Positions 3,585 to 47,901 of a stretch of 64,000 nt of DNA are shown here, one piece after another. The DNA is taken from sequence record OL780484.1; one strand, written 5' to 3'. The translations under genes were made by a program, and so were the position numbers. The notes beneath the pieces are model-generated. The model searched no databases. It saw only the letters and a program-made list of their open reading frames with translations, and was not told the DNA's origin. Positions within the stretch are counted from its first letter, which is position 1; every line of letters begins with the position of its first letter. This DNA is from Escherichia phage vB_EcoM-E33.

Positions 3585-4112
3585 ATGAAATTTTTAACTC
3601 CCATTTATCTAACCTTAATGCACGCCTTCGCTGAACGCGCCATTGAACGTTTAGACTCAGACCAATATACCTGGTATGAACCTGCTTCAAGAATGCAAGA
3701 GTTTGGTACTCTTCGACTTGATGGCGGACGCCAAACAGGTAAAACAAGTGCCCTTGCTCAGTTCGCCGCTGATTGGGTTTCCAAGGGTAATGATGTGATT
3801 GTTATGTCGAGTTCTTCGCATCGCTCGCGAGAAATTTGTAATGTAATAAAACAGGTTTCTAAGGCACACCCACATCTCCAAGTCGAAGGTCCTGGTTTTG
3901 TTGTCTATGATACTGTGCGCAGTTTCCTTGATGAAGACAATTTCCATAAGTATCGTGGACTATCTGTTACTCGATTATTGATTATTATCGAAGAGCCAAT
4001 GCGCCTTCCAGCGATGGATAAGTTCTATGAAGCTTACCAGGTAATGATTAATAAATTTATGTGCCAAGGCGACAAGCCTTTGCCTCTGTTCTTTGTGATA
4101 GGAATGCAATGA
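3585..4112 (+). CDS. hypothetical protein with P-loop-like motif (GGRQTGKTSA)
   Basis: ORF 3552-4112; start placed at ATG 3585 after AAGGAAA SD. Confidence 0.45.
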   Translation: MKFLTPIYLTLMHAFAERAIERLDSDQYTWYEPASRMQEFGTLRLDGGRQTGKTSALAQFAADWVSKGNDVIVMSSSSHRSREICNVIKQVSKAHPHLQVEGPGFVVYDTVRSFLDEDNFHKYRGLSVTRLLIIIEEPMRLPAMDKFYEAYQVMINKFMCQGDKPLPLFFVIGMQ

Positions 4113-4405
4113 TGACTGATGAAGAACTTTTTGAGTTCTGTTATTTCTCACGTAAGGTTCGAAGAGAGGACCTTACTGCAAATTTCGAATATGCTTATTT
4201 CTACCCATTGGAATATGTATTCATGTCAGGGCCCTTTAAGGGCTCTCGTTTTAGATGTCATGCTCCTAGTATCCGATTAATGAAACAGGTTCCTTACTTC
4301 ACTCTCGAGTTCATCTCAGGGCCTTGTAAGGGTATTATTACTCGTAGTCTCTTGACTTATGACCAAGAGATTCATATGATTTCTGACTGGAAAAAATATG
4401 TCTAA
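4109..4405 (+). CDS. hypothetical protein with internal duplicated SGP(F/C)KG motif
   Basis: ATG overlaps upstream stop (ATGA); 98 aa. Confidence 0.4.
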   Translation: MMTDEELFEFCYFSRKVRREDLTANFEYAYFYPLEYVFMSGPFKGSRFRCHAPSIRLMKQVPYFTLEFISGPCKGIITRSLLTYDQEIHMISDWKKYV

Positions 4406-4616
4406 ATTGACAATTGAAGGTTCTGAAGAAGCTCTGAAAAGATTTGTTGAATGGCTTAATGGACCAGGTGAACAAGACTTTCTGGAAGTCTGGGATGGCG
4501 GTCGGTGGAATGGTAAAGAAATGATTTACCCGACTACCTATATCTCCGTGCAAGGTTGGACTGAAGGCCTTCGTTTGGTAGAATATGATATCGCAACTGG
4601 CGAGGAAGTGAAATGA
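4398..4616 (+). CDS. hypothetical protein
   Basis: 72-aa ORF in coupled gene chain. Confidence 0.4.
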   Translation: MSKLTIEGSEEALKRFVEWLNGPGEQDFLEVWDGGRWNGKEMIYPTTYISVQGWTEGLRLVEYDIATGEEVK

Positions 4617-4891
4617 TTGAAGATATCAAGGGTTATAAGCCGCATACCGACGATAAAATCGGTAAAGTAAACGCTATCAAAGATGCTGAAGTTCGTCTTG
4701 GGTTAATGTTTAAAGCTCTGGAAGAAGAACATGTTACTCATTATATGAACTTAGATACCGAAGAGGTTTCTGAACAAGAACTAGACCAGGCTCATGAACG
4801 CATCACCCAGATTCGTAATGCAATTGACCGTCTGAAAGAAGCAAGCATGTGGGCGTGTCGTTCCGTTTTCCAACCCGAGGAAAAATACTGA
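4613..4891 (+). CDS. hypothetical protein
   Basis: 92-aa ORF, start overlaps upstream stop. Confidence 0.45.
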   Translation: MIEDIKGYKPHTDDKIGKVNAIKDAEVRLGLMFKALEEEHVTHYMNLDTEEVSEQELDQAHERITQIRNAIDRLKEASMWACRSVFQPEEKY

Positions 4892-13420: not shown

Positions 13421-13488
13421 GTGTGTACATATGCTTTAAACGTGTTATTATAGACCTATCAAATCTACTGAGTGAAATGGAGAATATA

Positions 13489-14469
13489 ATGTTAACTATC
13501 AAAATCAACAAAGGTATCTATCGCGGTAATGAAATCTCTGGTACGTTCATGAGTTCAGGTAAAACCTGGTTCCCTAATAAAATTCATGAATCCGAAGCTC
13601 ACCTCGGTGATGGCAAGGTATTCGTACAGATTGATGGTGTTGAACGTGGTGTATGGGTGTTCAAATGTGACGTTGAAATGGAAGGTGCTGAAGCTCCTGC
13701 AGTTGTTACTGAATCCGCTGAAGAAATGAAACATCGCATTAACAAACGTTTTAAAGTAATGAACATGATGACTAATGGAATCATCGATGGTAAAATTCGT
13801 TCCCTTATCATCTCTGGTGCCGCAGGTATTGGTAAAACGTATTCTTTGGATAAAGCATTACAGAATGCCCACGAAAATGAAACTATCGAATATAAATCAA
13901 TCAACGGAAAGATTAGTGGAATCGGTCTTTACGAGCAGCTTTGGAATAACCGCGGCCCTAATAGTGTTCTTCTTATTGATGATGTTGATGTATTCTCTGA
14001 TATGGATATCCTGAACCTGTTAAAAGCAGCATTGGATACTGGTGAAAAACGTAAGGTGTGCTGGAGCACTTCAAGTTCTTATCTTGATGATAAAAATATC
14101 GATAAAGAATTTGAGTATGAAGGCACCATCGTGTTCATCACCAACGTTGATATTGACCGTGAATTAGAGCGTGGAACTAAACTTGCTCCACACCTCCAGG
14201 CTTTAGTATCGCGTTCAGTTTACTTAGACCTCGGAGTTCACTCGAACGAAGAGATTATGGTTCGTGTTGAAGACGTTATCCTGTCCACTGATATGATGCA
14301 AAACCGTGGTCTGACTGATGCCGAGACTTACCAAGCTTTAGCATGGATGAAGGCTAATGTATCTCGTCTTCGTAACGTATCATTACGTACAGCTCTTTAT
14401 CTGGCGGACTTCATTGCCACCGATAAAAATGACTGGAGCGAAATCGCTGAAGTTACACTTCTGAAATAA
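13489..14469 (+). CDS. AAA-type P-loop ATPase
   Basis: Walker A GAAGIGKT, Walker B VLLIDDVD; start at ATG 13489 after GGAG SD. Confidence 0.55.
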   Translation: MLTIKINKGIYRGNEISGTFMSSGKTWFPNKIHESEAHLGDGKVFVQIDGVERGVWVFKCDVEMEGAEAPAVVTESAEEMKHRINKRFKVMNMMTNGIIDGKIRSLIISGAAGIGKTYSLDKALQNAHENETIEYKSINGKISGIGLYEQLWNNRGPNSVLLIDDVDVFSDMDILNLLKAALDTGEKRKVCWSTSSSYLDDKNIDKEFEYEGTIVFITNVDIDRELERGTKLAPHLQALVSRSVYLDLGVHSNEEIMVRVEDVILSTDMMQNRGLTDAETYQALAWMKANVSRLRNVSLRTALYLADFIATDKNDWSEIAEVTLLK

Positions 14470-16310: not shown

Positions 16311-16526
16311 ATGGAAATTATTGGTTTTATTCTTGCTTATCTTGTGATAGGATTTATTACTGCTTTGATTGCGCATAAAACAGGCGCGTGGAACCCGGTT
16401 AAAATTGAATCAAGCTATGATGCGGTATTCATTACATTTGTATGGCCAGTATTTTGCTTTGCCTGGTTATGTATGCTAATTCTGTGGCCTATCGCTAAAC
16501 TCTATGAAAAATTATTTGGACTCTGA
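16311..16526 (+). CDS. small membrane protein
   Basis: 71 aa, two hydrophobic helices. Confidence 0.45.
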   Translation: MEIIGFILAYLVIGFITALIAHKTGAWNPVKIESSYDAVFITFVWPVFCFAWLCMLILWPIAKLYEKLFGL

Positions 16527-16527
16527 T

Positions 16528-17397
16528 ATGAACATTAAAACACGTAAAGAATATTCCATCTATGACCATGACACGACTCGTCGTATCGCTATCGATCGGC
16601 TGGCAGACTTTGGCCATATTTGTAATGGTAATTATACTTATGGTGTAGGTCGTAAAGGGACTTATATTAGTTCTTTGAACGATTATTGCCGTTGCCCTGC
16701 TCATTTATTTGGTGCAACACTGCGAGCTAATATCAAAGACCTCTTGGCTACCGCAGGACGTATTTCTACGGTTCCTGTCAATATCAAGAATATTAATTTT
16801 ACGGCTCGTAACCTAGTCATTAATATTCTGCCTGACGGTATTCAAGTTCGTTTCCGTCCTACCTCAAAAGGTAATAAGGCCCTTCGTGAAGCATTCGAAA
16901 CCTTATTCAGAGAGGCAATGACCCGTATTAAGGCAGTAGAATCATATAAAGTTACAACCGATGAATATGCTGATTGTTTTGAGCGGGCTGATGCAGTGTA
17001 TTTTAATGTTAAACTAACTCGTGAATATCTTTTGTCTTATGCCCCTTATCAATCCCAACAAAAGGACCCACAAATGGAACGTCGTATCTCTGCAGTATCA
17101 TGTGACAGTGTAGGCCAGTATGCGGCCTATGACAAATTCAAAACCACTGCTGTACCAAGCCCATTCAATTCCGAACCGTATCATTGGAAAATTAAACCCG
17201 AGAATTCTTTGGTGGTTACTAACCCTACGATGAAACCTATCGAGAAGTATCATGAGGACCACCTCCAGGAATCAATCCACCGTTTAAACGGCCAGATCGA
17301 AGATGAGAAAAAGAGTATCCAAGACGTATTGATTCGCATCAAGAACATGGAACTCCAGCGTGACAAGCTCCGCGCGGCAGTATTAGCTCTAAAATAA
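16528..17397 (+). CDS. hypothetical protein with helical C-terminal tail
   Basis: Start at ATG 16528 just after upstream TGA (alternative 16504). Confidence 0.45.
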   Translation: MNIKTRKEYSIYDHDTTRRIAIDRLADFGHICNGNYTYGVGRKGTYISSLNDYCRCPAHLFGATLRANIKDLLATAGRISTVPVNIKNINFTARNLVINILPDGIQVRFRPTSKGNKALREAFETLFREAMTRIKAVESYKVTTDEYADCFERADAVYFNVKLTREYLLSYAPYQSQQKDPQMERRISAVSCDSVGQYAAYDKFKTTAVPSPFNSEPYHWKIKPENSLVVTNPTMKPIEKYHEDHLQESIHRLNGQIEDEKKSIQDVLIRIKNMELQRDKLRAAVLALK

Positions 17398-20070: not shown

Positions 20071-21144
20071 ATGCAAGATTTCGGACATTGGGCGGTATTT
20101 GAAGAAACCGATATTAAAAACCATATTGGATTTGTATACGTAATCACTTTTGAAGATGGCAAAAAATATGTGGGTGCTAAAAAGATTTGGAAACGAATTA
20201 AAGCTGCACCTTGCACATTTAAACGCGGCCCTAAAAAAGGATTTGAAGAATCTGATTGGAAAACCTATACCTCATCATCTAATGAACTAAACGCAATGAT
20301 AGAAAAGGGTATAAGTCCTAAAGAGTACCTTATTGTAGGATGGTATCCTACTTGGGGTAAAACTCTTATGGCAGAAATGGAAATGCAATTAGCCAATGAT
20401 GTTTTACGAGACCCTATGTGGCTTAACAAGCAAATTGGCGGACATTTCAACCCTAACTGCTTTGACGATTTAACCGAAGATGATATTGCAAGATGGATGG
20501 AATTTGATAAAGGGAACGAACATGTTTCCTGGCCTATGATGTACAAAATCGGTCAGAAAACCAAATATGTTAAACCTGACGAAGTTGGCAAGTATATTAA
20601 ATCTGGGTGGCAATTTGGTCGTTCTAAAACAGAAAAACATTCTGTTACCTATAATTGCTCTAAATTTACTATATGGGACTATCAAGAAAATAAAGCAGTG
20701 GAAGTTCTAAATCAAAATGAGTTTGCTCGTAATAATGATTTAAGTAGCAACCATCTAACTAGACTACTTCAAGGAACTCTCGACCTTATTAAAGATCGCT
20801 GGGGACTTCCACCAGATATTGCTCGTCAGCGTTATAAATTTCAGGACGTTTCTTCAGGAACAAAATTTTTATCTAATTCTGAGTTAGAAGAATTTTACGG
20901 TATGACTCGCGGTCAGGCTAACAAAGCCGTTAAAGATGGAAGAGCCGTTAAATTGGTAGTCGAAAGCAAAGAAGACCACATTAAAAAACTTGGCTCTATC
21001 GAATTGGTAAAAACCGAAAAGACAAAAGTTACGTCTCAAGTAATGCTTAACAGTTTTAAAGATATAGTTAATCCTATGACCACTGCCGAAAAATCAGAAA
21101 TGATTGAATGGTTGGAAAGTTATATAACTTATTTGAAATCTTAA
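20071..21144 (+). CDS. GIY-YIG-like (Seg-type) putative homing endonuclease
   Basis: GFVYVITFEDGKKYVGAKK...WKR has GIY-x10-YIG spacing followed by basic residues; 357 aa. Confidence 0.4.
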   Translation: MQDFGHWAVFEETDIKNHIGFVYVITFEDGKKYVGAKKIWKRIKAAPCTFKRGPKKGFEESDWKTYTSSSNELNAMIEKGISPKEYLIVGWYPTWGKTLMAEMEMQLANDVLRDPMWLNKQIGGHFNPNCFDDLTEDDIARWMEFDKGNEHVSWPMMYKIGQKTKYVKPDEVGKYIKSGWQFGRSKTEKHSVTYNCSKFTIWDYQENKAVEVLNQNEFARNNDLSSNHLTRLLQGTLDLIKDRWGLPPDIARQRYKFQDVSSGTKFLSNSELEEFYGMTRGQANKAVKDGRAVKLVVESKEDHIKKLGSIELVKTEKTKVTSQVMLNSFKDIVNPMTTAEKSEMIEWLESYITYLKS

Positions 21145-32574: not shown

Positions 32575-35286
32575 ATGCAAGAATTCTATTTGACAGTCGA
32601 ACAAATCGGTGATAATATTCTCGAACGTTACATCGATAAAAATGGTAACGAACGTAGTCGTGAAGTTCCTTACAAGCCTACAATGTTTATGCATGCTAAT
32701 CCAGAGCAAGCCGTAAAATACATTGATATCTATGGTAAGGGTTGTGTTAAGAAAGAATTCGACTCTATGCGTGATGCATCCCAATGGATGAAACGTATGG
32801 ACGATATGGGTCTCGAAGCCCTGGGTATGGACGACTATAAATTAGCCTATTTGTCTGATACCTATCGTAAAGAAATCAGATATGATTCTTCTAAGATTCG
32901 TATTGCTAACTTCGACATCGAGGTAACATCTCCTGATGGATTCCCTGAACCAGCTCAGGCTAAACATCCTATCGATGCCATTACCCACTACGACTCGATT
33001 GACGATAAATTCTATGTATTCGACCTTTTAGTTTCGCCTTATGGTACTGTCGAAGAGTGGTCGATTAAAATCGCTGAGAAACTCCAAGACGAAGGCGGTG
33101 ACGAAGTTCCACAAGAAATCATTGACAAAATCGTTTATCTTCCGTTTAATTCTGAAGAAGAAATGATGCTTGAGTACTTGAATTTCTGGCAACAGAAAAC
33201 TCCTGTGATTTTGACTGGATGGAACGTTGAGTCGTTTGACGTACCGTACGTTTATAACCGTCTGAAAAATCTGTTCGGTGAGAACACTGCTAAGCGATTA
33301 AGCCCACATCGTAAAACTCGTGTTAAAGTTATTGAGAACATGTACGGGGCTCGTGAAATCATTACATTGTTCGGTATCTCTGTTCTGGATTATATCGACC
33401 TCTATAAAAAATTCAGCTTCACCAACCAGCCTTCTTATTCTCTGGATTATGTTTCTGAATATGAATTGAAAGTAGGTAAGTTGAAATATGATGGCCCAAT
33501 CTCCAAGTTACGTGAGACGAACCACCAACGATATATTTCCTATAACATTATCGACGTATATCGTGTAGTGCAGATTGATATGAAGCGTCAGTTCATTCTT
33601 CTGAGTTTGGACATGGGTTATTATGCCAAGATGCAGATTCAGTCGGTGTTCAGCCCAATTAAGACTTGGGACGCTATTATCTTTAATAGCCTTAAAGAAC
33701 AAGGCAAGGTAATTCCACAAGCTCGCTCACACGTGGTCCAACCTTATCCTGGTGCTTTCGTTAAGGAACCGATTCCTAACGCTTACAAATATGTAATGAG
33801 TTTCGACCTTACATCTCTGTATCCGAGTATCATTCGACAAGTGAATATAAGCCCAGAGACCATCGCAGGGACATTCGCTAACGCACCGATACATGAATAT
33901 ATTGCCGGAACTGCTCAGCGTCCTAGCGACACCTACAGTTGCTCTCCTAACGGCATGATGTACTATAAAGACCGTGAAGGTGTGATTCCGACAGAAATCA
34001 CCAAGGTATTCTTGCAGCGTAAAGAACATAAAGGTTACATGCTTGCAGCTCAACGTAATGGTGAGTTAATTAAAGAAGCATTGGAAAATCCTAATCTCTC
34101 AGTTGATAGTCCACTGGATATCGATTATCGTTTTGACTTCTCTGACGAAATCAAAGCCAAGATTAAAGCACTGTCAGCGCCTTCTTTAAGAGAAATGTTG
34201 AAGAAAGCCGAGCTCACTGAAGTTGCAGGTAACACTGCTCAGATTAACCGTAAGTTGCTTATCAACTCCCTTTATGGTGCACTTGGTAACGTATGGTTCC
34301 GTTACTATGACCTCAGGAACGCAACTGCAATCACATTGTTTGGTCAAATGGCCCTCCAATGGATTGAACGTAAGGTTAACGAATATCTGAATAGCGTGTG
34401 TAAGACTGAAAACCAGAAGTTCGTGCTCTACGGTGATACTGACTCCATTTATGTTAAGGCAGATGCAATCATCAATAAAGTAGGCGAAGATAAATTCCGT
34501 GATACTAACCACTGGGTCGACTTCTTAGATAAATTTGCACGTGAACGTATGGAACCAGCTATTGATGCAGGCTTCCGTGAGATGTGCGAATACATGAACA
34601 ACAAACAACACTTGATGTTCATGGACCGAGAAGCTATCGCAGGTCCTCCACTTGGTTCTAAAGGCCTTGGTGGATTCTGGACAGGCAAGAAACGTTATGC
34701 ACTTAACGTTTGGGACATGGAAGGTACTCGTTATGCTGAACCACACTTGAAAATCATGGGTCTCGAAACTCAGAAATCAAGTACACCTAAAGCAGTTCAG
34801 AAAGCTCTGAAGGAATGTATCCGTCGTATGCTTCAGGAAGGCGAGGCATCTTTGCAAGAATATTTCAAACAGTTTAATAAGGAATTTAACGAACTCGATT
34901 ATGTAAGCATTGCAGCAGTATCCAGTGCTAACAACATCGAGAAATATAATGAAGGTGGATTCCCGGGTTCTAAATGTCCATACCACATCAAAGGTTGCTT
35001 AGCTTACATGCGTGCTTCTGCAGGTGATTTGACTATGCCTCGTATCGTTGATGGTGAAAAGGTATATGTACTGCCACTTAAAGAAGGCAACCCGTTCGGT
35101 GAAGCTTGTATGGCATGGCCGTCAGGTATTGAACTTCCGGTTCAGATTCGTGACCAAGTCCTCCGTTGGATGGACTACAACGTACTGTTCCAAAAGACCT
35201 TTATCAAACCTCTGACCGGTTTTACTGAGTCTGCTAAAATCGACTACGAGAAAAAAGCAACATTATTTGATATGTTCGACTTTTAA
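32575..35286 (+). CDS. 43: DNA polymerase gp43 (family B)
   Basis: Start at MQEFYLTVEQIG; exo motifs FDIE, polymerase motifs DxxSLYPSI and YGDTDS; long colinear match to remembered T4/RB69 gp43. Confidence 0.95.
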   Translation: MQEFYLTVEQIGDNILERYIDKNGNERSREVPYKPTMFMHANPEQAVKYIDIYGKGCVKKEFDSMRDASQWMKRMDDMGLEALGMDDYKLAYLSDTYRKEIRYDSSKIRIANFDIEVTSPDGFPEPAQAKHPIDAITHYDSIDDKFYVFDLLVSPYGTVEEWSIKIAEKLQDEGGDEVPQEIIDKIVYLPFNSEEEMMLEYLNFWQQKTPVILTGWNVESFDVPYVYNRLKNLFGENTAKRLSPHRKTRVKVIENMYGAREIITLFGISVLDYIDLYKKFSFTNQPSYSLDYVSEYELKVGKLKYDGPISKLRETNHQRYISYNIIDVYRVVQIDMKRQFILLSLDMGYYAKMQIQSVFSPIKTWDAIIFNSLKEQGKVIPQARSHVVQPYPGAFVKEPIPNAYKYVMSFDLTSLYPSIIRQVNISPETIAGTFANAPIHEYIAGTAQRPSDTYSCSPNGMMYYKDREGVIPTEITKVFLQRKEHKGYMLAAQRNGELIKEALENPNLSVDSPLDIDYRFDFSDEIKAKIKALSAPSLREMLKKAELTEVAGNTAQINRKLLINSLYGALGNVWFRYYDLRNATAITLFGQMALQWIERKVNEYLNSVCKTENQKFVLYGDTDSIYVKADAIINKVGEDKFRDTNHWVDFLDKFARERMEPAIDAGFREMCEYMNNKQHLMFMDREAIAGPPLGSKGLGGFWTGKKRYALNVWDMEGTRYAEPHLKIMGLETQKSSTPKAVQKALKECIRRMLQEGEASLQEYFKQFNKEFNELDYVSIAAVSSANNIEKYNEGGFPGSKCPYHIKGCLAYMRASAGDLTMPRIVDGEKVYVLPLKEGNPFGEACMAWPSGIELPVQIRDQVLRWMDYNVLFQKTFIKPLTGFTESAKIDYEKKATLFDMFDF

Positions 35287-35288
35287 GT

Positions 35289-35318
35289 GTTTACATACCA
35301 CAAGGAACGTGGTAGTAT
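35289..35318 (+). promoter_or_regulatory. early promoter (GTTTAC ... TG-n-TAGTAT)
   Basis: -35 35289-35294, -10 35313-35318. Confidence 0.5.
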
Positions 35319-35348
35319 CCTTCCTATCAACTACATGAGGAAATTACA

Positions 35349-35585
35349 ATGGAAGCTTTAATCGTTAGTGCTGGTGTTTTAGGATTCGGTTCTCTGGTTA
35401 TTATGTTCATCGGTTACTTTTTACCATGGATTCTGGCTCTTCTGCGAGGCACTCGTAGTAATGTAGGAATTTTCTTCCTTAATCTCCTGTTAGGCTGGAC
35501 GATGATTGGTTGGGTAGTGGCTTTAATCTGGGCTATCGTCGCTGAACGTAAATCAAACGCACAAATCATTATTGTTAAACAATGA
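35349..35585 (+). CDS. small two-helix membrane protein (Imm-like by position)
   Basis: 78 aa, two hydrophobic helices; T4 imm/imm.1 follow gene 43. Confidence 0.4.
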   Translation: MEALIVSAGVLGFGSLVIMFIGYFLPWILALLRGTRSNVGIFFLNLLLGWTMIGWVVALIWAIVAERKSNAQIIIVKQ

Positions 35586-35719
35586 AAATAATTGTTTTAT
35601 TTCTTATAATGGCTGCCTTTACCGTTTATTGGGCAGTGGCAATTCCGCCAATGATTCCGACACTCATCATTGGATGGATTATTCTTATAGCACAAATTAA
35701 GTATAACTGTTTTAATTGA
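35582..35719 (+). CDS. small membrane peptide (45 aa)
   Basis: ATG overlapping upstream TGA; hydrophobic; not in ORF track. Confidence 0.3.
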   Translation: MKIIVLFLIMAAFTVYWAVAIPPMIPTLIIGWIILIAQIKYNCFN

Positions 35720-35726
35720 GGATATT

Positions 35727-36227
35727 ATGAAAAAGTTAATTATCGCAATGAGTATGCTCCTATCAGGTTGCGCGGTCCAATATGGTGATACAGTTTCGGC
35801 CGATGAAGTTGGTAAAGCTCGTATCGCAGCTGAACAGAAACAATTCGATGGCGAAATGAAATTCCGTGCAGGTTCTGGACTTGTGTACACCCGAGCTAAT
35901 AATCAATGCGGTAATAACTGTGCAAAATATGCTCAACAAGAAATCGAATTCCAACGTGAACAAGAGTCCAAGCGTGAAGCGGTACTAGCCAAACACCAGG
36001 CAGAAATGAAGCGTCAAGATGATTTGTACAAAAAGCAGAAACTGTATGCGATGTGCGTAAACCATATCAATCTACAGATTTCCATCCACGAGGCTCGTTA
36101 TTACGAAATGCTCGAAACCGAGAGCTTCGGTAAAGCTCGTGATTATAAGAAACAAATCGATAAGCTCAAGACCAAAGTACCGGCGGCAATAGAACAGTGT
36201 ATTGAAATCGGTAAAGATAAGATTTAA
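35727..36227 (+). CDS. putative lipoprotein
   Basis: Signal peptide with lipobox LLSGC; 166 aa. Confidence 0.5.
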   Translation: MKKLIIAMSMLLSGCAVQYGDTVSADEVGKARIAAEQKQFDGEMKFRAGSGLVYTRANNQCGNNCAKYAQQEIEFQREQESKREAVLAKHQAEMKRQDDLYKKQKLYAMCVNHINLQISIHEARYYEMLETESFGKARDYKKQIDKLKTKVPAAIEQCIEIGKDKI

Positions 36228-36287
36228 GCAATACCAATTTATTAAAAATAGTGTATAATGTACCTACATTCACTTGAGGAACAGATA

Positions 36288-37961
36288 ATGAAAAAGGTTG
36301 TTATTTTAGGCGCGGGTCTTGGCTCACGGTTGTATCCAATTACCAACGAAATCCCGAAGGTACTGGTTAACTACAAACAACATACTGTATTAAAACATTT
36401 GTATGATTTGTATAGTAATCAATCAGATGAAATTATTCTGGTTATTCACAGCAAATTTAACGACCTCGTTAAAGGCTATATTAAATCCATTAACATGATT
36501 AATAGTGATAAGCCTAAATTCACTATTCGTAACGTTGATGTTGCCAATGGTTCGGCTCATGCTATCGATTGCATTGCCGAAGATATCATTGGGCACAATG
36601 TCTTGTTTAACTGGTGTGATATTATTCCTGAAGGTCATAAAGTTGAGTGGGATAACGACTACTGTTATACCTATGGGACTGACTGTCGTTTTACATTTGA
36701 AGAACCGTACTTGCGTGAAATTGGTACCGGTGGTGGCGTAGTTGGCTTGTATCAGGTGGCTAATTGGACAGGTTTCGACCGTTCTAATTATGGTGAAGAC
36801 CTTGCTGACAACCTGGATTCAATGGTCCATTTGACTGAACGTAAGTTAGACTTTGTAGTTGATGTTGGTGACAAACTGAAACTGGCTAAGGCGCATGAAG
36901 ATTCTGAAATTAACCGTGAATTTAATAAATTAGAGTTCACCGAGAATCTAGCTATTAAAGTACCAACTAACGAATTGGGTAAAGAAATCCAATCTAAAGA
37001 AATCAATTGGTATAATTCTATTGATTCCGAATTCGTTCCTAGCATTGTAGACTTTGCTCCAGGCGAATTCATTAAAATGGAACGTATCTTTGGTCGAACC
37101 ATGGCAGATGCCTACCGGTTTATGTCTAAAGAAACTAAAGTCCTAATGGTTTATAAGGTTATTAGTGCATTACGTTCGTTCGGTGGAACTATCGATAATC
37201 CGTCCGATGAGCAATGGTATTCTGATGTTAAGAAAGAAGTATTGGACAAGGTCCTTATTCGTAATGCTTCTATTGCCGGATTGATTGAAGGCTTTGCTCC
37301 ACAGGGTATTACCCATGTTAACGACTTCAAGGTAGGCGACCCAGAAAAACTTCTTCGTCACGCCTTAGAAATTCTGTCTGAACATAAAGAACCGTACCAA
37401 CTTATTCATGGCGACCCGCACTACAGTAATATTATGTTGTCGGACGAAGGTAATATTAAAATCATCGACCCACGTGGTTATTTTGGTAATAGTTCTAAAG
37501 GCCCTGCGATTTATGATGAAGCTAAGGTGCTTTATTCTATCGATGGTTATGACAAATTTAACTCTGACCCTCTATGGGGTGGCTTAACTCGTAACGGAAC
37601 TCGTGTATTCGTTGATATTGAAAAGGTTATGCCTTTAGATGATATTCCGATGTGTACATTTAAGCACAAGCTCTGGATTGCTGTTATCTGGATGGCATTG
37701 GCAGGTTACTTTAAAAATAACCCTCTGAAAGCTCTGGGCGCTTATTACAATGGGCTATATCAACTGAGTGTGCTGCTGAAGCGGCATCCTCGTAAGCGTA
37801 AGCTTATCACAGGTGAATTCGTTGATGAAGTTCGCGACCCTATCACGGCTCAAATTATCACTCGTTGTCCTGATAAGTGGGTTTTGCTTGACCAGGAAAC
37901 TGGTGTAAAATATAAACCTACAGGTTCTACCGAACTCCACAAACAATGGAAGAAAATTTAA
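36288..37961 (+). CDS. bifunctional sugar-phosphate nucleotidyltransferase / kinase-like protein
   Basis: N-term ILGAGLGSRL (G-x-G-x-R nucleotidyltransferase motif); C-term HGDPHYSNIML...IIDPRG (APH/choline-kinase-like catalytic loop); start at ATG 36288 after GAGGA. Confidence 0.55.
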   Translation: MKKVVILGAGLGSRLYPITNEIPKVLVNYKQHTVLKHLYDLYSNQSDEIILVIHSKFNDLVKGYIKSINMINSDKPKFTIRNVDVANGSAHAIDCIAEDIIGHNVLFNWCDIIPEGHKVEWDNDYCYTYGTDCRFTFEEPYLREIGTGGGVVGLYQVANWTGFDRSNYGEDLADNLDSMVHLTERKLDFVVDVGDKLKLAKAHEDSEINREFNKLEFTENLAIKVPTNELGKEIQSKEINWYNSIDSEFVPSIVDFAPGEFIKMERIFGRTMADAYRFMSKETKVLMVYKVISALRSFGGTIDNPSDEQWYSDVKKEVLDKVLIRNASIAGLIEGFAPQGITHVNDFKVGDPEKLLRHALEILSEHKEPYQLIHGDPHYSNIMLSDEGNIKIIDPRGYFGNSSKGPAIYDEAKVLYSIDGYDKFNSDPLWGGLTRNGTRVFVDIEKVMPLDDIPMCTFKHKLWIAVIWMALAGYFKNNPLKALGAYYNGLYQLSVLLKRHPRKRKLITGEFVDEVRDPITAQIITRCPDKWVLLDQETGVKYKPTGSTELHKQWKKI

Positions 37962-38320
37962 TGCATCTGTGTTTTGATATCGATAATACCATTACTCACT
38001 GGCAAGATGACCGTGATTACGAAAACTTTAAACCGGACACCGAAATGGTGTCCATGATTAATAAGCTTTATGATGAAGGGTACGAGATTACCTTGTTCAC
38101 TGCCCGTGGTATGACTTCATGCGGCCCGGGTCGAATCTTGGTTGAAGTAGTTCCTGCATTAGTTAAGAACCTTGAAAAGATTGGATTGAAATATCACAAT
38201 CTGCTTACACATAAGCCGAGTTATACTTTTATCATCGATGACCGAGCAATCCGTCCTGACCACTTTAAAGAAATGGTTCGTGAAGGAACTCTTGAAACCT
38301 ATAAGGCATATCATCCGTGA
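37961..38320 (+). CDS. HAD-superfamily phosphatase-like protein
   Basis: Motif I FDIDNTIT (DxDxT), LFTARG, IIDDR; TAATG overlap with upstream gene. Confidence 0.5.
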   Translation: MHLCFDIDNTITHWQDDRDYENFKPDTEMVSMINKLYDEGYEITLFTARGMTSCGPGRILVEVVPALVKNLEKIGLKYHNLLTHKPSYTFIIDDRAIRPDHFKEMVREGTLETYKAYHP

Positions 38321-38853
38321 AACCAAAAATCATTGTTATCGACGGCCCGGATAATTCCGGGAAGTCTACTTTAATTGAATCACTTTTATCTGATAAGAAA
38401 TATCGTCTTATTGATTTCCCTAAAAAGATTAATGGCAAATGCATTTCATTAGGGACCGATAATGACAAGGCTTTAGTCGAGACGTTGTATAAGTTTTTAG
38501 ACCCTAATTTCGTTTACATCCTTGACCGTGGTTATCCAAGTAATATTGTTTACTCGGGATTCCTTCGCGGTGAAATGGACCCTTATGTAGAACTGGAAGA
38601 TTGGAAAAGGTTTAAATCTGAATTCAATATTATTGAGGTTATTTTAACCCGTAATCCACTGGATAAAGACTTTGAAGATGACCTTATTAAATTAACCAAA
38701 GATGAGTTCAACCTAACTATCCGCCAATACGAAACATGTTTTGAAAACGTGTTTAAAATCTTAAATCACGACGGCCATAATAACTTGCTTAACGTCGATA
38801 TGGTAGAATTAAAACGTCTGAATGAATATATTGAAAATAAGGTGAATAAATGA
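38317..38853 (+). CDS. thymidylate-kinase-like P-loop nucleotide kinase
   Basis: IVIDGPDNSGKSTL Walker A, RLIDFP and LDRGYPSNIVYSGF resemble TMPK motifs. Confidence 0.5.
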   Translation: MKPKIIVIDGPDNSGKSTLIESLLSDKKYRLIDFPKKINGKCISLGTDNDKALVETLYKFLDPNFVYILDRGYPSNIVYSGFLRGEMDPYVELEDWKRFKSEFNIIEVILTRNPLDKDFEDDLIKLTKDEFNLTIRQYETCFENVFKILNHDGHNNLLNVDMVELKRLNEYIENKVNK

Positions 38854-39548
38854 AACACATTACCGCTGTTAGTTTTGAAAACGCGTTTAAGCAAATGAAC
38901 GAAGAAATCCTGGAAGCTCCACAGTTTGCAGTTGATTCTCGTATCGGCCGTTGTTATGAAATTGGTTCTGCTTCGGTAGAAGTACTGGATGCAAGCACCT
39001 ATAAATTCACCGACCCTCGTATTAATCGTATCAACTATGATTATGCCGAATCTTTCTGGAAGTTTATGATTTCTGGTGGTACTGACGCCGCCGAAGCATT
39101 TAAGGAATACCCTAATGTTGCTAAGTTCATTGATAAGCCGAAAAGTGACGTATTGCCTGCAAACTTCAACACTTTCTATGGACCTAGAATTGTGGCCCAA
39201 CTCCCAGCCTTACTTAAAGAGCTTAAAGAGAAGCCTAACTCAAGACGAGTTGTGTTCCAAATTCTCCAAGAACAAGACCAAGCCCTCCTTGATTCTGACG
39301 AATCCTTAGAATATCCATGTACTGATTCAGTGACATATTATATTCGTGATGGACGTCTTTATGCACATACCCATATGCGTTCACAGAACTGTGCTATTGT
39401 TATGCAGCTGGATTTCTATCTGCAGGGTAAACTGATGGCCTTTATTGCTGAACAGTGTGGTGTTGGTCTGGGTACGTATTCCCATACTATGGTTAGTGCA
39501 CACGTATTTGAACGTGATTTTGACTACGTTCGAGGATTCCTGAAATGA
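38850..39548 (+). CDS. thymidylate-synthase-family pyrimidine hydroxymethylase (divergent gp42-like)
   Basis: KPNSRRVVF, catalytic-Cys motif YPCTDSVTYYIRD, MRSQN, SAHVF align to remembered T4 gp42 motifs; low overall identity. Confidence 0.5.
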   Translation: MKHITAVSFENAFKQMNEEILEAPQFAVDSRIGRCYEIGSASVEVLDASTYKFTDPRINRINYDYAESFWKFMISGGTDAAEAFKEYPNVAKFIDKPKSDVLPANFNTFYGPRIVAQLPALLKELKEKPNSRRVVFQILQEQDQALLDSDESLEYPCTDSVTYYIRDGRLYAHTHMRSQNCAIVMQLDFYLQGKLMAFIAEQCGVGLGTYSHTMVSAHVFERDFDYVRGFLK

Positions 39549-40438
39549 GTTTGTTTATCGTTCCTATTTTCAGTATGCGTAGTTACGAAACAGGTGAATA
39601 TGCCGTCCTTAAGGACGGTAATTTTCAACTCCATTTAAACCGTGCTTGCCAAGGTGATTATCTGGCTTATCCTAGAAATTCGAGCGATATCAAAGAATGC
39701 ATTGAATTATTTCCTGAACTGAATTTTGTACCTCTTTGGTATAAAGAAAATGCTTATGAAACTCGTAAACATTTTTGGTCTGAAAATGAGTTCGTTGTTG
39801 ATTCGTTAATCGAATACTATGACTGCTCAGGATTGGTAACCGATATCACAGGTTATGATGGCACTCAGACTGTACAATTCAACTTTAACATTACAATGGA
39901 CCCTGAAGTTCCTCGTTATTATATCGACGAGTTTATTGATACCGACGTGTCCTCAGTTGAACGTTCGATTTATACCACAGTCCTGAATCAATGCCAGAAA
40001 GACGTCCTGGTGTCACGAGGTGCGTCCTCTGATAAGATTTTTGTAGACCAAAAGGTAATTAATCCGGCAGTAATTGAGCGTTACTCTGAAGGCCTAGCGC
40101 CTATTAAAATTGATGGTATTTTCCATCCATTCCGTATCTCTGATAAATGTTATCAATTCGAAAGAGTTGTAGACCAAGCTGCGGCTGAAGGTTCTCGCCT
40201 TTATATCACCGATCCGAATGATTCATTTAAGCGTGAAGACTATCGTCCTGATGTAGAGATTATTAAATTCAAACCGAGTAAGGTTGAATATTATCAGATT
40301 CTGAAATCAAGACCTCATATCATTTATCATGAGAATCCCAGTTTAGTATTTCATCCTGGCCTGGCTGAATTCATTTATTTCGGTGCCCACATCCATTCTG
40401 AGCACGAAATGCCAAGTTATGAGGACGTGGTCCTTTAA
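39545..40438 (+). CDS. hypothetical protein (occupies T4 beta-glucosyltransferase slot)
   Basis: 297-aa ORF coupled to the upstream gene; no motif recognised. Confidence 0.45.
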   Translation: MSLFIVPIFSMRSYETGEYAVLKDGNFQLHLNRACQGDYLAYPRNSSDIKECIELFPELNFVPLWYKENAYETRKHFWSENEFVVDSLIEYYDCSGLVTDITGYDGTQTVQFNFNITMDPEVPRYYIDEFIDTDVSSVERSIYTTVLNQCQKDVLVSRGASSDKIFVDQKVINPAVIERYSEGLAPIKIDGIFHPFRISDKCYQFERVVDQAAAEGSRLYITDPNDSFKREDYRPDVEIIKFKPSKVEYYQILKSRPHIIYHENPSLVFHPGLAEFIYFGAHIHSEHEMPSYEDVVL

Positions 40439-40515
40439 CGCTGTAAATGTGAAGTGATATAATTACCCTATCTTAAAACGTGAGTAAAATATAATGATGC
40501 CTATGGAAAAATATA

Positions 40516-41688
40516 ATGTCTGATTTAAAATCCCGTTTGATTAAAGCTTCTACTTCTAAAATGACCGCCGACCTGACCAAATCTAAATTGTTTAATGGTC
40601 GTGACGAAGTTCCTACTCGTATCCCTATGCTGAATATTGCATTAGGCGGTGCGTTGAATGCAGGCTTACAATCAGGTTTGACAATCTTTGCTGCTCCATC
40701 TAAACACTTTAAAACGTTGTTTGGACTTACCATGGTTGCGGCATATATGAAGAAATATCCAGACGCAATTTGTTTGTTCTATGACTCTGAGTTTGGTGCT
40801 TCAGAATCTTATTTCCGTTCGATGGGTGTTGATTTGGAACGTGTGGTTCATACACCAATCCAGTCAGTCGAACAGCTTAAAGTTGATATGACCAACCAGT
40901 TAGAAGAAATTACTCGTGGCGAAAAGGTTATTATCTTTATCGACTCCATTGGTAACACTGCTTCTAAGAAAGAAACCGAAGATGCTTTGAACGAGAAAGT
41001 TGTAGGTGATATGACTCGTGCTAAATCACTGAAATCTCTGTTCCGTATCGTAACACCTTATCTGACCATCAAAGATATCCCTTGTGTAGCAATTAACCAC
41101 ACGGCTATGGAAATTGGTGGAATGTACCCTAAAGAGATTATGGGTGGTGGTACTGGTATTCTGTACTCTGCTTCTACCGTGTTCTTTATCTCTAAACGTC
41201 AGGTTAAAGATGGTACTGAGCTCACTGGTTATGACTTCACACTGAAGGCCGAGAAATCTCGTACGGTTAAAGAGAAATCAACGTTCCCGATTACAGTGAA
41301 CTTCGAAGGTGGTATCGACCCATTCAGTGGATTGCTTGAAATGGCTACTGATATTGGCTTTGTCGTGAAACCTAAAGCTGGCTGGTATAATCGTGCATTC
41401 CTTGACGAAACCACAGGCGAAATGGTTCAAGAAGAAAAAGCATGGCGTGCTAAAGCTACCGATTGTGTCGAGTTCTGGGGACCGCTGTTTAAACATGCCC
41501 CGTTCCGTGAAGCAATCGAGAATAAGTATAAGCTCGGTGCAATTAATTCTATTAAAGAAGTTGACGATGCAGTGAACGACCTTATTAACTCTCGTGTCTC
41601 TAAGAACGTTGCTGTTAAATTAGGTGGTAATGCCCAAAGCGCCGCTGATATCGAAAACGATTTGGAAGAGATGAATTTAGATGACTGA
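40516..41688 (+). CDS. uvsX: recombinase UvsX (RecA-like)
   Basis: 390 aa; MSDLKSRLIKASTSK..., Walker A GPSKxFKT, colinear with remembered T4 UvsX. Confidence 0.95.
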   Translation: MSDLKSRLIKASTSKMTADLTKSKLFNGRDEVPTRIPMLNIALGGALNAGLQSGLTIFAAPSKHFKTLFGLTMVAAYMKKYPDAICLFYDSEFGASESYFRSMGVDLERVVHTPIQSVEQLKVDMTNQLEEITRGEKVIIFIDSIGNTASKKETEDALNEKVVGDMTRAKSLKSLFRIVTPYLTIKDIPCVAINHTAMEIGGMYPKEIMGGGTGILYSASTVFFISKRQVKDGTELTGYDFTLKAEKSRTVKEKSTFPITVNFEGGIDPFSGLLEMATDIGFVVKPKAGWYNRAFLDETTGEMVQEEKAWRAKATDCVEFWGPLFKHAPFREAIENKYKLGAINSIKEVDDAVNDLINSRVSKNVAVKLGGNAQSAADIENDLEEMNLDD

Positions 41689-46718: not shown

Positions 46719-47375
46719 ATGAATTACGAAAAAATATACCAGGAATTAATATCTAAAGGAAAATTAAGAGGTTCTAAGCGGTCTTTATCATATTATACGG
46801 AAGAACACCATGTTATACCTAGATGTATGAATGGTTCTGATGATAAAAACAATTTAGTTGCTTTATTGCCAAGAGAACACTTTGTAGCTCATAGGCTTTT
46901 AACAAAAATATATCCCGAAGTAAAAGGTCTACATTATGCTGTTAATTTAATGAGATATAATAAAGGAGTTAAATTAACTAGTAGAACTATAGCCACGTTA
47001 AGAGAAAATAACGCTAAAGCATTTTCAGGAAAAAATAACCCGATGTTTGGTAAACCTTCCTGGATTAGAGGGATGAAAACTCCTGAAGAAACTAAAGCCA
47101 AAATGCGCCTGGCTCATAAAGATAAAATTATATCTGATGAAGCCAAGGCCAATATGAGTAAAGCTAGAAAAGGAAGATTTAGTGGTAAAGATTCCCCTAG
47201 ATATGGTTTGCCGAATCCTAGGCGTGGAGAAATATGGAATAGTTACGATATGCTTTACGAATTATGGGTTTACAATAATAAACCTAAACGCACCAAATTT
47301 AATAAAATAGCTGTTGATAATGGATATCCTGATATTTGTTATCGACGAATGATAGAAAACTTTAATAGGAAATAA
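46719..47375 (+). CDS. Mob-type HNH homing endonuclease
   Basis: HNH motif EEHHVIPRCMNGSDDKNNLVALLPREH; NUMOD3-like GKNNPMFGK; AT-rich; paralog of 11078-11842. Confidence 0.7.
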   Translation: MNYEKIYQELISKGKLRGSKRSLSYYTEEHHVIPRCMNGSDDKNNLVALLPREHFVAHRLLTKIYPEVKGLHYAVNLMRYNKGVKLTSRTIATLRENNAKAFSGKNNPMFGKPSWIRGMKTPEETKAKMRLAHKDKIISDEAKANMSKARKGRFSGKDSPRYGLPNPRRGEIWNSYDMLYELWVYNNKPKRTKFNKIAVDNGYPDICYRRMIENFNRK

Positions 47376-47379
47376 TATA

Positions 47380-47901
47380 ATGGCATTTTTTAACGAATGT
47401 AGTGGTTTGATTTCTGGTGTTGATAAAGCTGAGGAAGCTTATTTTAATGCTCTGATTCATGAAGATAAAGACCCTCTGCAGGTTATGCTTGATATGCAGA
47501 AATCATTACAGGTCCGTTTGGCTACTGAAAAATCTGAATTTAACTCTAACCCCGATGAACTGGCTACTGCAGGTCAAGTTGTCGATTGGCTTCGCAACCA
47601 GAAAGATTATATTGATGACGAATTCCGTGAACTGTTGACTTCTCTTGGTGGCATGAGTAATGGTGAGAAAGCCGCATCTAGCGTCTGGAAGCCTTGGAAA
47701 GCTCAGCACGGTGAATTCCGTAACCGTCGTATTGACGAACTCTCTCCTGAAGACCAGCTTGAAATTAAATTCGAGATGATTGATATTCTGCACTTTGTTC
47801 TGAATATGTTCCAAGGTCTTGGTCTGTCAGCCGAAGAAATCTTTAAGTTGTATTACCTGAAAAACGCTGAGAACTTTGCTCGTCAAGACCGAGGTTATTA
47901 A
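47380..47901 (+). CDS. 56: dCTP pyrophosphatase gp56 (MazG-like all-alpha NTP-PPase)
   Basis: 173 aa; DDEFRELL and EMIDILHFVL resemble MazG-type motifs; T4-like position next to 61. Confidence 0.6.
   Translation: MAFFNECSGLISGVDKAEEAYFNALIHEDKDPLQVMLDMQKSLQVRLATEKSEFNSNPDELATAGQVVDWLRNQKDYIDDEFRELLTSLGGMSNGEKAASSVWKPWKAQHGEFRNRRIDELSPEDQLEIKFEMIDILHFVLNMFQGLGLSAEEIFKLYYLKNAENFARQDRGY

Follow-up and report, generated by a model that had tools for sequence, protein, structure and literature searches.

Results

Genomic context of the locus

Which enzyme occupies the gene-42 slot of this T-even phage, between gene 43/imm and uvsX? The DNA analysed here is one stretch of 64,000 nucleotides from Escherichia phage vB_EcoM-E33 (hereafter, the window). 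It belongs to a Dhakavirus, i.e. a T-even phage of the JS98/Bp7/IME08 type, and the 20 kb around the ORF in this slot (Table 1) are 95–98% identical in DNA sequence to IME08, QL01, WG01, LHE83 and others. The initial annotation had read this ORF as a hydroxymethylase far more divergent than the replication proteins around it, and had described gp43, UvsX, gp41, gp45 and lysozyme as close to their T4 counterparts. Comparison with the T4 genome (NC_000866) bears out both statements. By BLASTP, the ORF product shares 25% identity with T4 gp42 over 159 aa, confined to the C-terminal two thirds (E = 7e-12, as a single pair), whereas identity over the full length is 59–66% for gp43 (61%), UvsX (66%), gp41 (65%) and gp45 (59%), and 67% for gp44. 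The lysozyme ORF (1414–1908) matches T4 lysozyme from end to end (E = 1e-81).

A canonical gp42 could also be sought elsewhere in the window. When the whole 64 kb was searched by tblastn with T4 gp42 and E. coli ThyA, no match was obtained besides the ORF in the slot, so a canonical gp42 is not encoded elsewhere in this stretch. The T4 beta-glucosyltransferase gene (beta-gt) was likewise sought across the 64 kb and had no match. The collinear region of IME08 carries no alpha-gt annotation, with only a-gt.2 to a-gt.4 left. Genes of the gp42 and glucosyltransferase types are thus absent from the window. At 0.387, the GC content of the locus does not differ from that of the rest of the window, and there is therefore no sign of a recent foreign origin. 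The position between gene 43/imm and uvsX is shared with T4 gene 42, but a shared slot carries no implication that its occupants are orthologous.

Table 1 Coordinates of the genes discussed in the text
Feature	Position	Strand	Length (aa)	Remarks
AfhE-like bifunctional enzyme (N-terminal sugar-1-phosphate nucleotidyltransferase, C-terminal APH-fold sugar kinase)	36258–37961	+	567	
AfhF-like HAD-family sugar phosphatase	37946–38320	+	124	DxDxT motif FDIDNTIT
TMPK-like/YorR-like P-loop nucleotide kinase	38317–38853	+	178	GTG start; P-loop GPDNSGKST; DRGYxSNxVY motif
5-hydroxy-dCMP synthase (dCMP C5-hydroxylase), predicted	38850–39548	+	232	ATG start; thymidylate-synthase fold
DNA arabinosyltransferase 1 (Aat1) homolog, RB69 gp47:46 / DLP3 gp79 type	39545–40438	+	297	
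gp56 dCTPase/dUTPase homolog	47380–47901	+		Outside operon; collinear with IME08 gene 56; Pfam dUTPase_2 1.8e-6

Family assignment

Membership in a protein family was assessed with Pfam and with phmmer searches of the PDB. The sole Pfam family matched by the product is PF00303 (4.8e-14; 52.6 bits against a cutoff of 24.3), and the match covers residues 114–229 only. The best PDB matches, which extend over the full length (E = 1e-125), are the entries 9iqu, 9iqc and 9ir2, proteins of 234–238 aa titled 'Thymidylate synthase'. At lower ranks follow MilA (2.5e-14), thymidylate synthases (5e-10 and weaker) and T4 gp42 (1b49/1b5d; 4.7e-6). With PF00303 and PDB matches to ThyA, MilA and gp42, the protein is a member of the thymidylate synthase superfamily. 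Since T4 gp42 ranks below both MilA and ordinary thymidylate synthases, these searches place the product on a separate branch of the superfamily and argue against a drifted gp42.

The same picture emerges from an alignment (A1) of the window protein with RB69 gp48, homologs from Lazarusvirus and from a Rhizobium phage, T4 gp42 and E. coli ThyA. RB69 gp48 is 78% identical to the window protein, and the Acinetobacter Lazarusvirus counterpart of DLP3 gp80 (gp076) is 71% identical, with identity falling to 33% for the Rhizobium phage (Pootjesviridae) homolog, 22% for T4 gp42 and 18% for ThyA. Counterparts in the Escherichia phages Bp7 and UGJNEcP3 are 99.6–100% identical, and those in JS10 and EcWhh-1 are 98% identical. 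High identity to canonical gp42 orthologs from related phages had been named beforehand as the observation that would speak against a different family member. The product does align at 70–87% identity with related-phage entries labelled 'dCMP hydroxymethylase' or 'thymidylate synthase', but these labels are wrong. A single-sequence AlphaFold2 model (mean pLDDT 45.3, pTM 0.45) was too poor for inspection.

Signature residues

Four sequence determinants of the hydroxylating enzymes have been published, in E. coli ThyA numbering: the catalytic C146, N177D (dCMP over dUMP), L143D/E and D169N (Lee et al., PMC13326640). D169N is the residue that separates hydroxylases from hydroxymethylases, and all nine further D169N homologs (9/9) gave 5hodC (PMC13326640). 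In alignment A1, the window protein has all four, with C157 at the position of C146, E154 at L143 (L143E), D188 at N177 (N177D) and N180 at D169 (D169N), whereas both T4 gp42 and ThyA have Asp where the window protein has N180. In ThyA, Asp169 contacts folate. Also invariant in A1 are the phosphate-binding pair R132/R133, C157, R177, S178 and H218; the position of ThyA W80 is Ala91, in a stretch where the alignment is gappy. Among 48 IMG/VR relatives with identities as low as 30%, E154, C157, N180 and D188 are invariant, although the invariance of N180 is partly by construction, as the MRSQN peptide was one of the two search seeds.

The initial annotation had stated that the enzyme keeps only the catalytic signature. 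All four of the quoted motifs (KPNSRRVVF, YPCTDSVTYYIRD, MRSQN and SAHVF) are indeed found in the ORF, but the last residue of MRSQN is N180, so that a motif taken as part of the conserved signature includes the very residue that marks the switch. Asn at the Asp169 position, together with an identity of 22–25% to gp42 against 78% to RB69 gp48, upholds the earlier suggestion that this is a different family member.

Published chemistry of the orthologs

The activities of several homologs have recently been reported. RB69 gp48 and gp80 of Acinetobacter phage DLP3 convert dCMP to 5-hydroxy-dCMP, as shown in vivo, with the oxygen derived from 18O2 and FMN bound to the purified enzymes (Lee et al., NAR 2026, PMC13326640). 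In the same assay, the RB69 gp48 product 5hodC was told apart from 5hmdC, the product of T4 gp42 (PMC13326640). In the characterised orthologs, FMN and O2 hydroxylate C5 and no carbon is transferred (PMC13326640, section 24). For the homolog of coliphage HY126, a flavin-bound structure and a reconstituted reaction are described by He et al. (Nat Chem Biol 2026), as relayed by Lee et al. The FMN/O2-dependent chemistry was established by Lee et al. and by two studies cited there, those of He et al. and of Mahler et al. (Cell Host Microbe 2025). Dhakaviruses are named by Lee et al. among the genera with a syntenic cluster (PMC13326640), and the assignment as 5hodCMP synthase is repeated for Mosigvirus in an independent paper (PMC13390438).

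Based on this homology, the ORF most probably encodes a 5hodCMP synthase with a ThyA fold in which the folate cofactor is replaced by flavin, a reading to which we assign a probability of roughly 0.9. Its synthase activity, its cofactor and the ensuing DNA modification are all read across from homologous proteins. The initial annotation had proposed an altered substrate or altered one-carbon chemistry. A difference in chemistry is supported, but of a kind other than the one envisaged: hydroxylation would proceed without carbon transfer, and dCMP would be kept as the substrate, as D188 suggests.

The oddity of this ORF is therefore real but already known, being explained in the 2025–2026 literature. 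JS98-type phages appear in Petrov et al. (2010) as carriers of gene 42 alleles that are without glucosyltransferases, and the nature of their modification is posed there as a question (PMC2993671). For RB69, arabinosyl-hmC was proposed by Thomas et al. (2018); the 2025–2026 papers corrected the modification to arabinosyl-5-hydroxycytosine and identified the enzyme.

Operon and accessory enzymes

Five plus-strand genes lie between 36258 and 40438, each overlapping the next by 4–16 nt, which indicates that they form an operon. In order, they are homologs of RB69 gp53:52, gp51, gp45, gp48 and gp47:46. A promoter and terminator scan of positions 35000–40700 returned no more sites than were found in shuffled sequence.

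The first gene product matches the Pfam families NTP_transferase (2.5e-8, residues 13–110) and APH (9e-6, residues 356–427), as well as PHROG 4098 at 5e-269, with a match that begins at residue 11; translation probably starts at M11, at position 36288. It is 43–47% identical to RB69 gp53:52 and Lazarus gp078 and is predicted to function in UDP-arabinofuranose synthesis. The second gene product (PHROG 1238, 5e-41) shares 62% identity with RB69 gp51 and 57% with Lazarus gp077, with D11, D13 and T17 invariant, and is predicted to convert Araf-1,5-bisphosphate to Araf-1-phosphate. In HY126, AfhE first transfers a phosphate to C1 of arabinofuranose-5-phosphate and at a later step forms UDP-Araf, and AfhF removes the 5-phosphate between these two AfhE steps, according to the account of He et al. 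relayed in PMC13326640.

The last gene product is 68% and 64% identical to the two halves of RB69 gp47:46 and 51% identical to Lazarus gp075, and it matches PHROG 3891 at 4e-158; Pfam and PDB sequence searches gave no match. The RB69 gp46:47 / DLP3 gp79 type is arabinosyltransferase 1 (PMC13326640, section 25, Table 1), and the window homolog is predicted to transfer the first arabinofuranose onto 5-hydroxycytosine in DNA. Another ORF of 297 aa (16504–17397) was considered as a second glycosyltransferase and rejected, as it belongs to DUF7235 and is unrelated. Outside the operon, the gp56 homolog, whose IME08 counterpart is annotated 'nucleoside triphosphate pyrophosphohydrolase', would be a supporting part of the pathway, supplying dCMP and removing dCTP.

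Among 50 viral-contig loci that were examined, about 40 have the genes for the synthase, the Aat1-like protein and the TMPK-like kinase next to one another; in the Straboviridae-like loci, AfhE/AfhF-like genes join these three. Nearby genes of the Aat1, kinase or AfhE/F type are lacking for some IMG/VR relatives that share the signature.

The TMPK-like kinase

A P-loop kinase does adjoin the synthase, in agreement with the initial annotation, in which it was taken to fit phosphorylation of a non-canonical dNMP. Its product matches PHROG 761 'thymidylate kinase' at 9e-40; Pfam gives AAA matches below threshold only, and the best PDB sequence match, SPbeta YorR, is weak (E = 0.03). At 36% identity to its homolog RB69 gp45 and 40% to Lazarus gp074, it is, by these comparisons, the fastest-evolving member of the cluster. 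Fast evolution and tight linkage to the synthase fit action on a nucleotide specific to the pathway, and phosphorylation of a non-canonical dNMP is plausible. Such a role is nevertheless only a candidate one, since the RB69 and DLP3 homologs, for which TMPK/YorR fold matches are reported, are labelled only 'nucleotide kinase' (Lee et al., PMC13326640), since a gp1-type dNMP kinase converts 5hodCMP to 5hodCDP in RB69 (PMC13326640, section 24), and since Dhakavirus IME08 also carries gene 1. The kinase that adjoins the synthase of Rhizobium phage AF3 is only 20% identical to that of the window, and conservation across phage families is therefore not claimed.

A reduced cluster in Dhakavirus

Three further RB69 proteins, namely gp55 (arabinose-5-phosphate isomerase), gp50 (U32-like) and gp3 (arabinosyltransferase 2), have no homologs in the 64-kb window. 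In the phage collection, gp3 homologs fall into two groups, one of at least 95% identity (Mosigvirus) and one of less than 60% (essentially all from Acinetobacter), and none lies at 60–95%, the range in which a Dhakavirus ortholog of gp3 would be expected. Since gp55, gp50 and gp3 homologs are missing from the window and no gp3 homolog of intermediate identity is present in the collection, Dhakavirus is predicted to place a single arabinose on 5hoC, with arabinose-5-phosphate provided through a host isomerase. The E. coli arabinose-5-phosphate isomerases are KdsD and GutQ. Because the Dhakavirus cluster is without gp55, gp50 and gp3, the final sugar decoration may differ from that of RB69.

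Proposed pathway

From the known chemistry of ThyA and gp42 and from published work on orthologs, a sequence of steps can be proposed by analogy for the Dhakavirus system, in which the cofactor, the product and each step are carried over from the orthologs. Cys157 would attack C6 of dCMP, with Asp188 selecting cytosine, and the activated C5 would then take an oxygen derived from O2 via reduced FMN, instead of a carbon unit from methylene-tetrahydrofolate. Elimination of the cysteine would yield 5-hydroxy-dCMP. 5-hydroxy-dCMP would then be phosphorylated, in RB69 by the gp1-type dNMP kinase, and the adjacent TMPK-like kinase may contribute. During replication, gp43 would put the 5-hydroxy-dC nucleotide into DNA in place of dC as gp56 depletes dCTP. 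The Aat1 homolog would finally add arabinose to the 5-OH in DNA from the donor UDP-arabinofuranose, which the AfhE-like and AfhF-like enzymes would make starting from host arabinose-5-phosphate.

Discussion

Alternative explanations

Two other activities could be assigned to the ORF. It might be a genuine T4 gp42 ortholog that evolves fast, i.e. a folate-dependent dCMP hydroxymethylase that makes 5hm-dCMP. The gene does occupy the slot of gene 42, flanked by gp43/imm and uvsX. Like gp42, its product retains the catalytic Cys, the Asp that selects cytosine and, where ThyA has L143, an acidic residue. The literature has pointed the same way: JS98-type phages were listed with gene 42 alleles (Petrov et al. 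2010, PMC2993671), and T4-phage reviews and several GenBank records say 'dCMP hydroxymethylase' for relatives. Yet MilA and ordinary ThyA are closer than gp42 in the PDB search, RB69 gp48, at 78% identity, makes 5hodC, and the Asp169 of gp42 and ThyA is replaced by Asn, a substitution with which every tested homolog gave 5hodC (PMC13326640). Glucosyltransferases are also absent (beta-gt from the window, alpha-gt from the collinear IME08 annotation), and we regard gp42 orthology as very unlikely. A conventional thymidylate synthase converting dUMP to dTMP is what the names suggest, as PF00303 is the only Pfam family matched and both PHROG and RefSeq (Bp7 and many relatives) use 'thymidylate synthase'. 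The Pfam match is, however, limited to residues 114–229, identity to E. coli ThyA is 18%, the dUMP determinant N177 is Asp (D188), the hydrophobic L143 is Glu (E154), and the gene lies inside a sugar-nucleotide/glycosyltransferase operon. This assignment is hardly credible.

Alternatively, the enzyme could belong to the hydroxylating clade while the Dhakavirus pathway ends differently from that of RB69, with another base product, another sugar, or 5hoC that is largely undecorated. Such an outcome would be in keeping with a reduced cluster that has one glycosyltransferase and is without gp55, gp50 and gp3 homologs in the window, with the confinement of gp3 homologs in the collection to Mosigvirus-level (at least 95%) and Acinetobacter (below 60%) matches, and with the same-signature IMG/VR relatives that are devoid of Aat1-, kinase- and AfhE/F-like genes nearby. 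Against it, genes of the AfhE, AfhF and Aat1 types are all there in intact form and show translational coupling to the synthase gene, and the host supplies an arabinose-5-phosphate isomerase, so that mono-arabinosyl-5hoC, as a pared-down version of the RB69 system, is the most economical reading. A different pathway end is accordingly judged improbable, and a 5hodCMP synthase feeding an arabinosylation pathway remains the preferred reading of the locus. A more specific and tentative proposal, which we consider possible but rather doubtful as a whole, is that the Dhakavirus locus represents a minimal natural 5-hydroxycytosine arabinosylation system that makes mono-arabinosyl-5hoC only, with the TMPK-like kinase dedicated to 5hodCMP or 5hodCDP. 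If true, one synthase, one arabinosyltransferase and AfhE/AfhF would suffice in combination with the host arabinose-5-phosphate isomerase, and the dedicated kinase would supplement the gp1 dNMP kinase or be used ahead of it.

Comparison with known systems

The closest known systems are those of RB69 gp48 and DLP3 gp80, which have a synthase of the same length with identical Cys, L143E, D169N and N177D, are accompanied by AfhE-, AfhF-, Aat1- and TMPK-like partners, and occupy the same slot between gp43 and uvsX. They differ in gene order, as the kinase of the window lies upstream of the synthase and theirs lies downstream of Aat1; the upstream order is also seen in Klebsiella- and Proteus-phage-like contigs. 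They also differ in content, since the window is without a phage arabinose-5-phosphate isomerase, a U32-like gp50, and a second or third arabinosyltransferase. Two arabinoses are added in RB69 and three in DLP3, whereas one is predicted for Dhakavirus.

The T4 gp42 system (PDB 1b5d/1b5e/1b49) shares the ThyA fold, the catalytic Cys, Asp at N177, the acidic residue at L143 and the genomic slot, and in both systems a modified dCMP is made before replication and glycosylated later on the DNA. In contrast to the hydroxylating clade, in which Asn is found and FMN plus O2 add a hydroxyl, gp42 keeps Asp169 and adds a hydroxymethyl from CH2-THF (PMC13326640). The sugar differs as well, with glucose on the hydroxymethyl in T4 and arabinofuranose on the ether oxygen in the hydroxylating clade. 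Outside phages, the closest relative of solved structure, as judged by sequence, is the CMP 5-hydroxymethylase MilA (PDB 5jnh, 5b6d); it can be aligned to residues 5–226 of the window protein, the N-terminal half included, and has Asp at both the N177 and the L143 positions (PMC13326640, section 24). MilA differs in that it depends on folate and has the ribonucleotide CMP as its substrate; it is also longer, by about 100 residues, and serves antibiotic biosynthesis. E. coli ThyA shares the fold and the covalent-catalysis scaffold with the window protein but has none of N177D, L143E and D169N.

Significance

The enzyme family is one in which the scaffold of a folate-dependent methyltransferase has been turned into a flavin-dependent pyrimidine hydroxylase, and the hydroxylated pyrimidine offers a new handle for glycosylation of phage DNA and for evasion of restriction and CRISPR. 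The discovery of the hydroxylase is already published for RB69, DLP3, HY126 and others. The additions made by the window are modest: phages of the JS98/Bp7 type are confirmed to carry a complete but reduced cluster, the public labels 'thymidylate synthase', 'dCMP hydroxymethylase' and 'phosphoheptose isomerase' are shown to be misleading, and the anomaly could be flagged from motifs alone by a reader of the sequence only. What remains novel are the predictions specific to Dhakavirus, namely one sugar, a minimal cluster and a role for the kinase. The practical bearing is on phage therapy and on the engineering of Dhakavirus genomes, as the DNA of these phages is expected to withstand many restriction enzymes and Cas nucleases.

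Unequal divergence within the arabinosylation operon

Evolutionary rates are strongly unequal inside the single arabinosylation operon, as seen when each product is compared with its homologs in the reference phages RB69 and Lazarus. The disparity is evident between the TMPK-like kinase and the synthase, the predicted dCMP hydroxylase of the ThyA fold.

Identity of operon products to RB69 and Lazarus homologs, and position of the ThyA Trp80-equivalent site
Feature	Window position	Residues	Identity, RB69 / Lazarus
Synthase	38850-39548		78% / 71%
Transferase (Aat1-like)			64-68% / 51%
Phosphatase (AfhF-like)			62% / 57%
AfhE-like			43-47% (both)
TMPK-like kinase	38317-38853		only 36% / 40%
ThyA Trp80-equivalent site	39117-39122	V90-A91 of synthase ORF	

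For the AfhE-like ORF, the true start (36258-36290 region) is probably the second ATG, M11, at position 36288; MKK(A/V)VILGAG forms the first residues of the PHROG profile and of both the RB69 and Lazarus AfhE homologs. The longer form is used in the RefSeq annotation of Bp7.

Public records of the cluster (L001 from Bp7, L007 from IME08, and records of related phage proteins) are misleading. 'Thymidylate synthase', 'dCMP hydroxymethylase' and 'hypothetical' all occur as names for the synthase; the HAD phosphatase appears as 'phosphoheptose isomerase' and the transferase as 'hypothetical'.

Other window ORFs

Several further ORFs were observed in the window. With imm on one side and the arabinosylation operon on the other, a 166-aa ORF (35727-36227) matches PHROG 1754 and has a lipoprotein-like N-terminus, MKKLIIAMSMLLSGC; among the viral-contig loci (~4 kb flank), it is seen only beside Dhakavirus-type clusters. 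The 297-aa ORF at 16504-17397 equals the arabinosyltransferase in length by coincidence; its product is a DUF7235 protein over the full length (2.8e-121) and is unrelated to the modification cluster. At 13423-14469, the only matches of a 348-aa ORF are one to HTH_37 and sub-threshold ones to AAA/STAND-NTPase families. Two homing-endonuclease-type genes are also present (20071-21144 and 46719-47375), one encoding a SegE-like GIY-YIG protein (Pfam 9.5e-34) and the other, directly upstream of gene 56, being HNH/NUMOD3 mobE-like.

A possible second hydroxylase marker, and homologs outside the usual cluster

Opposite ThyA Trp80, which is retained as Trp in T4 gp42, an invariant Ala is found in all four aligned hydroxylase-clade sequences, in a gappy part of the alignment. 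This Ala could represent a second marker of lost folate binding; the position was not singled out by Lee et al. (NAR 2026, PMC13326640).

The full E/C/N/D hydroxylase signature (E154, C157, N180 and D188 of the window ORF) is also present in ThyA homologs from seven IMG/VR loci (L042-L045, L048, L050 and L056), which share 47-51% identity with the window ORF (match ~4001-4690 in each). Within 4 kb on each side of these homologs, no Aat1-like, TMPK-like or AfhE/F-like gene was found. In the viruses that carry these homologs, decoration of 5-hydroxycytosine may fall to unrelated enzymes, or the base may remain undecorated.
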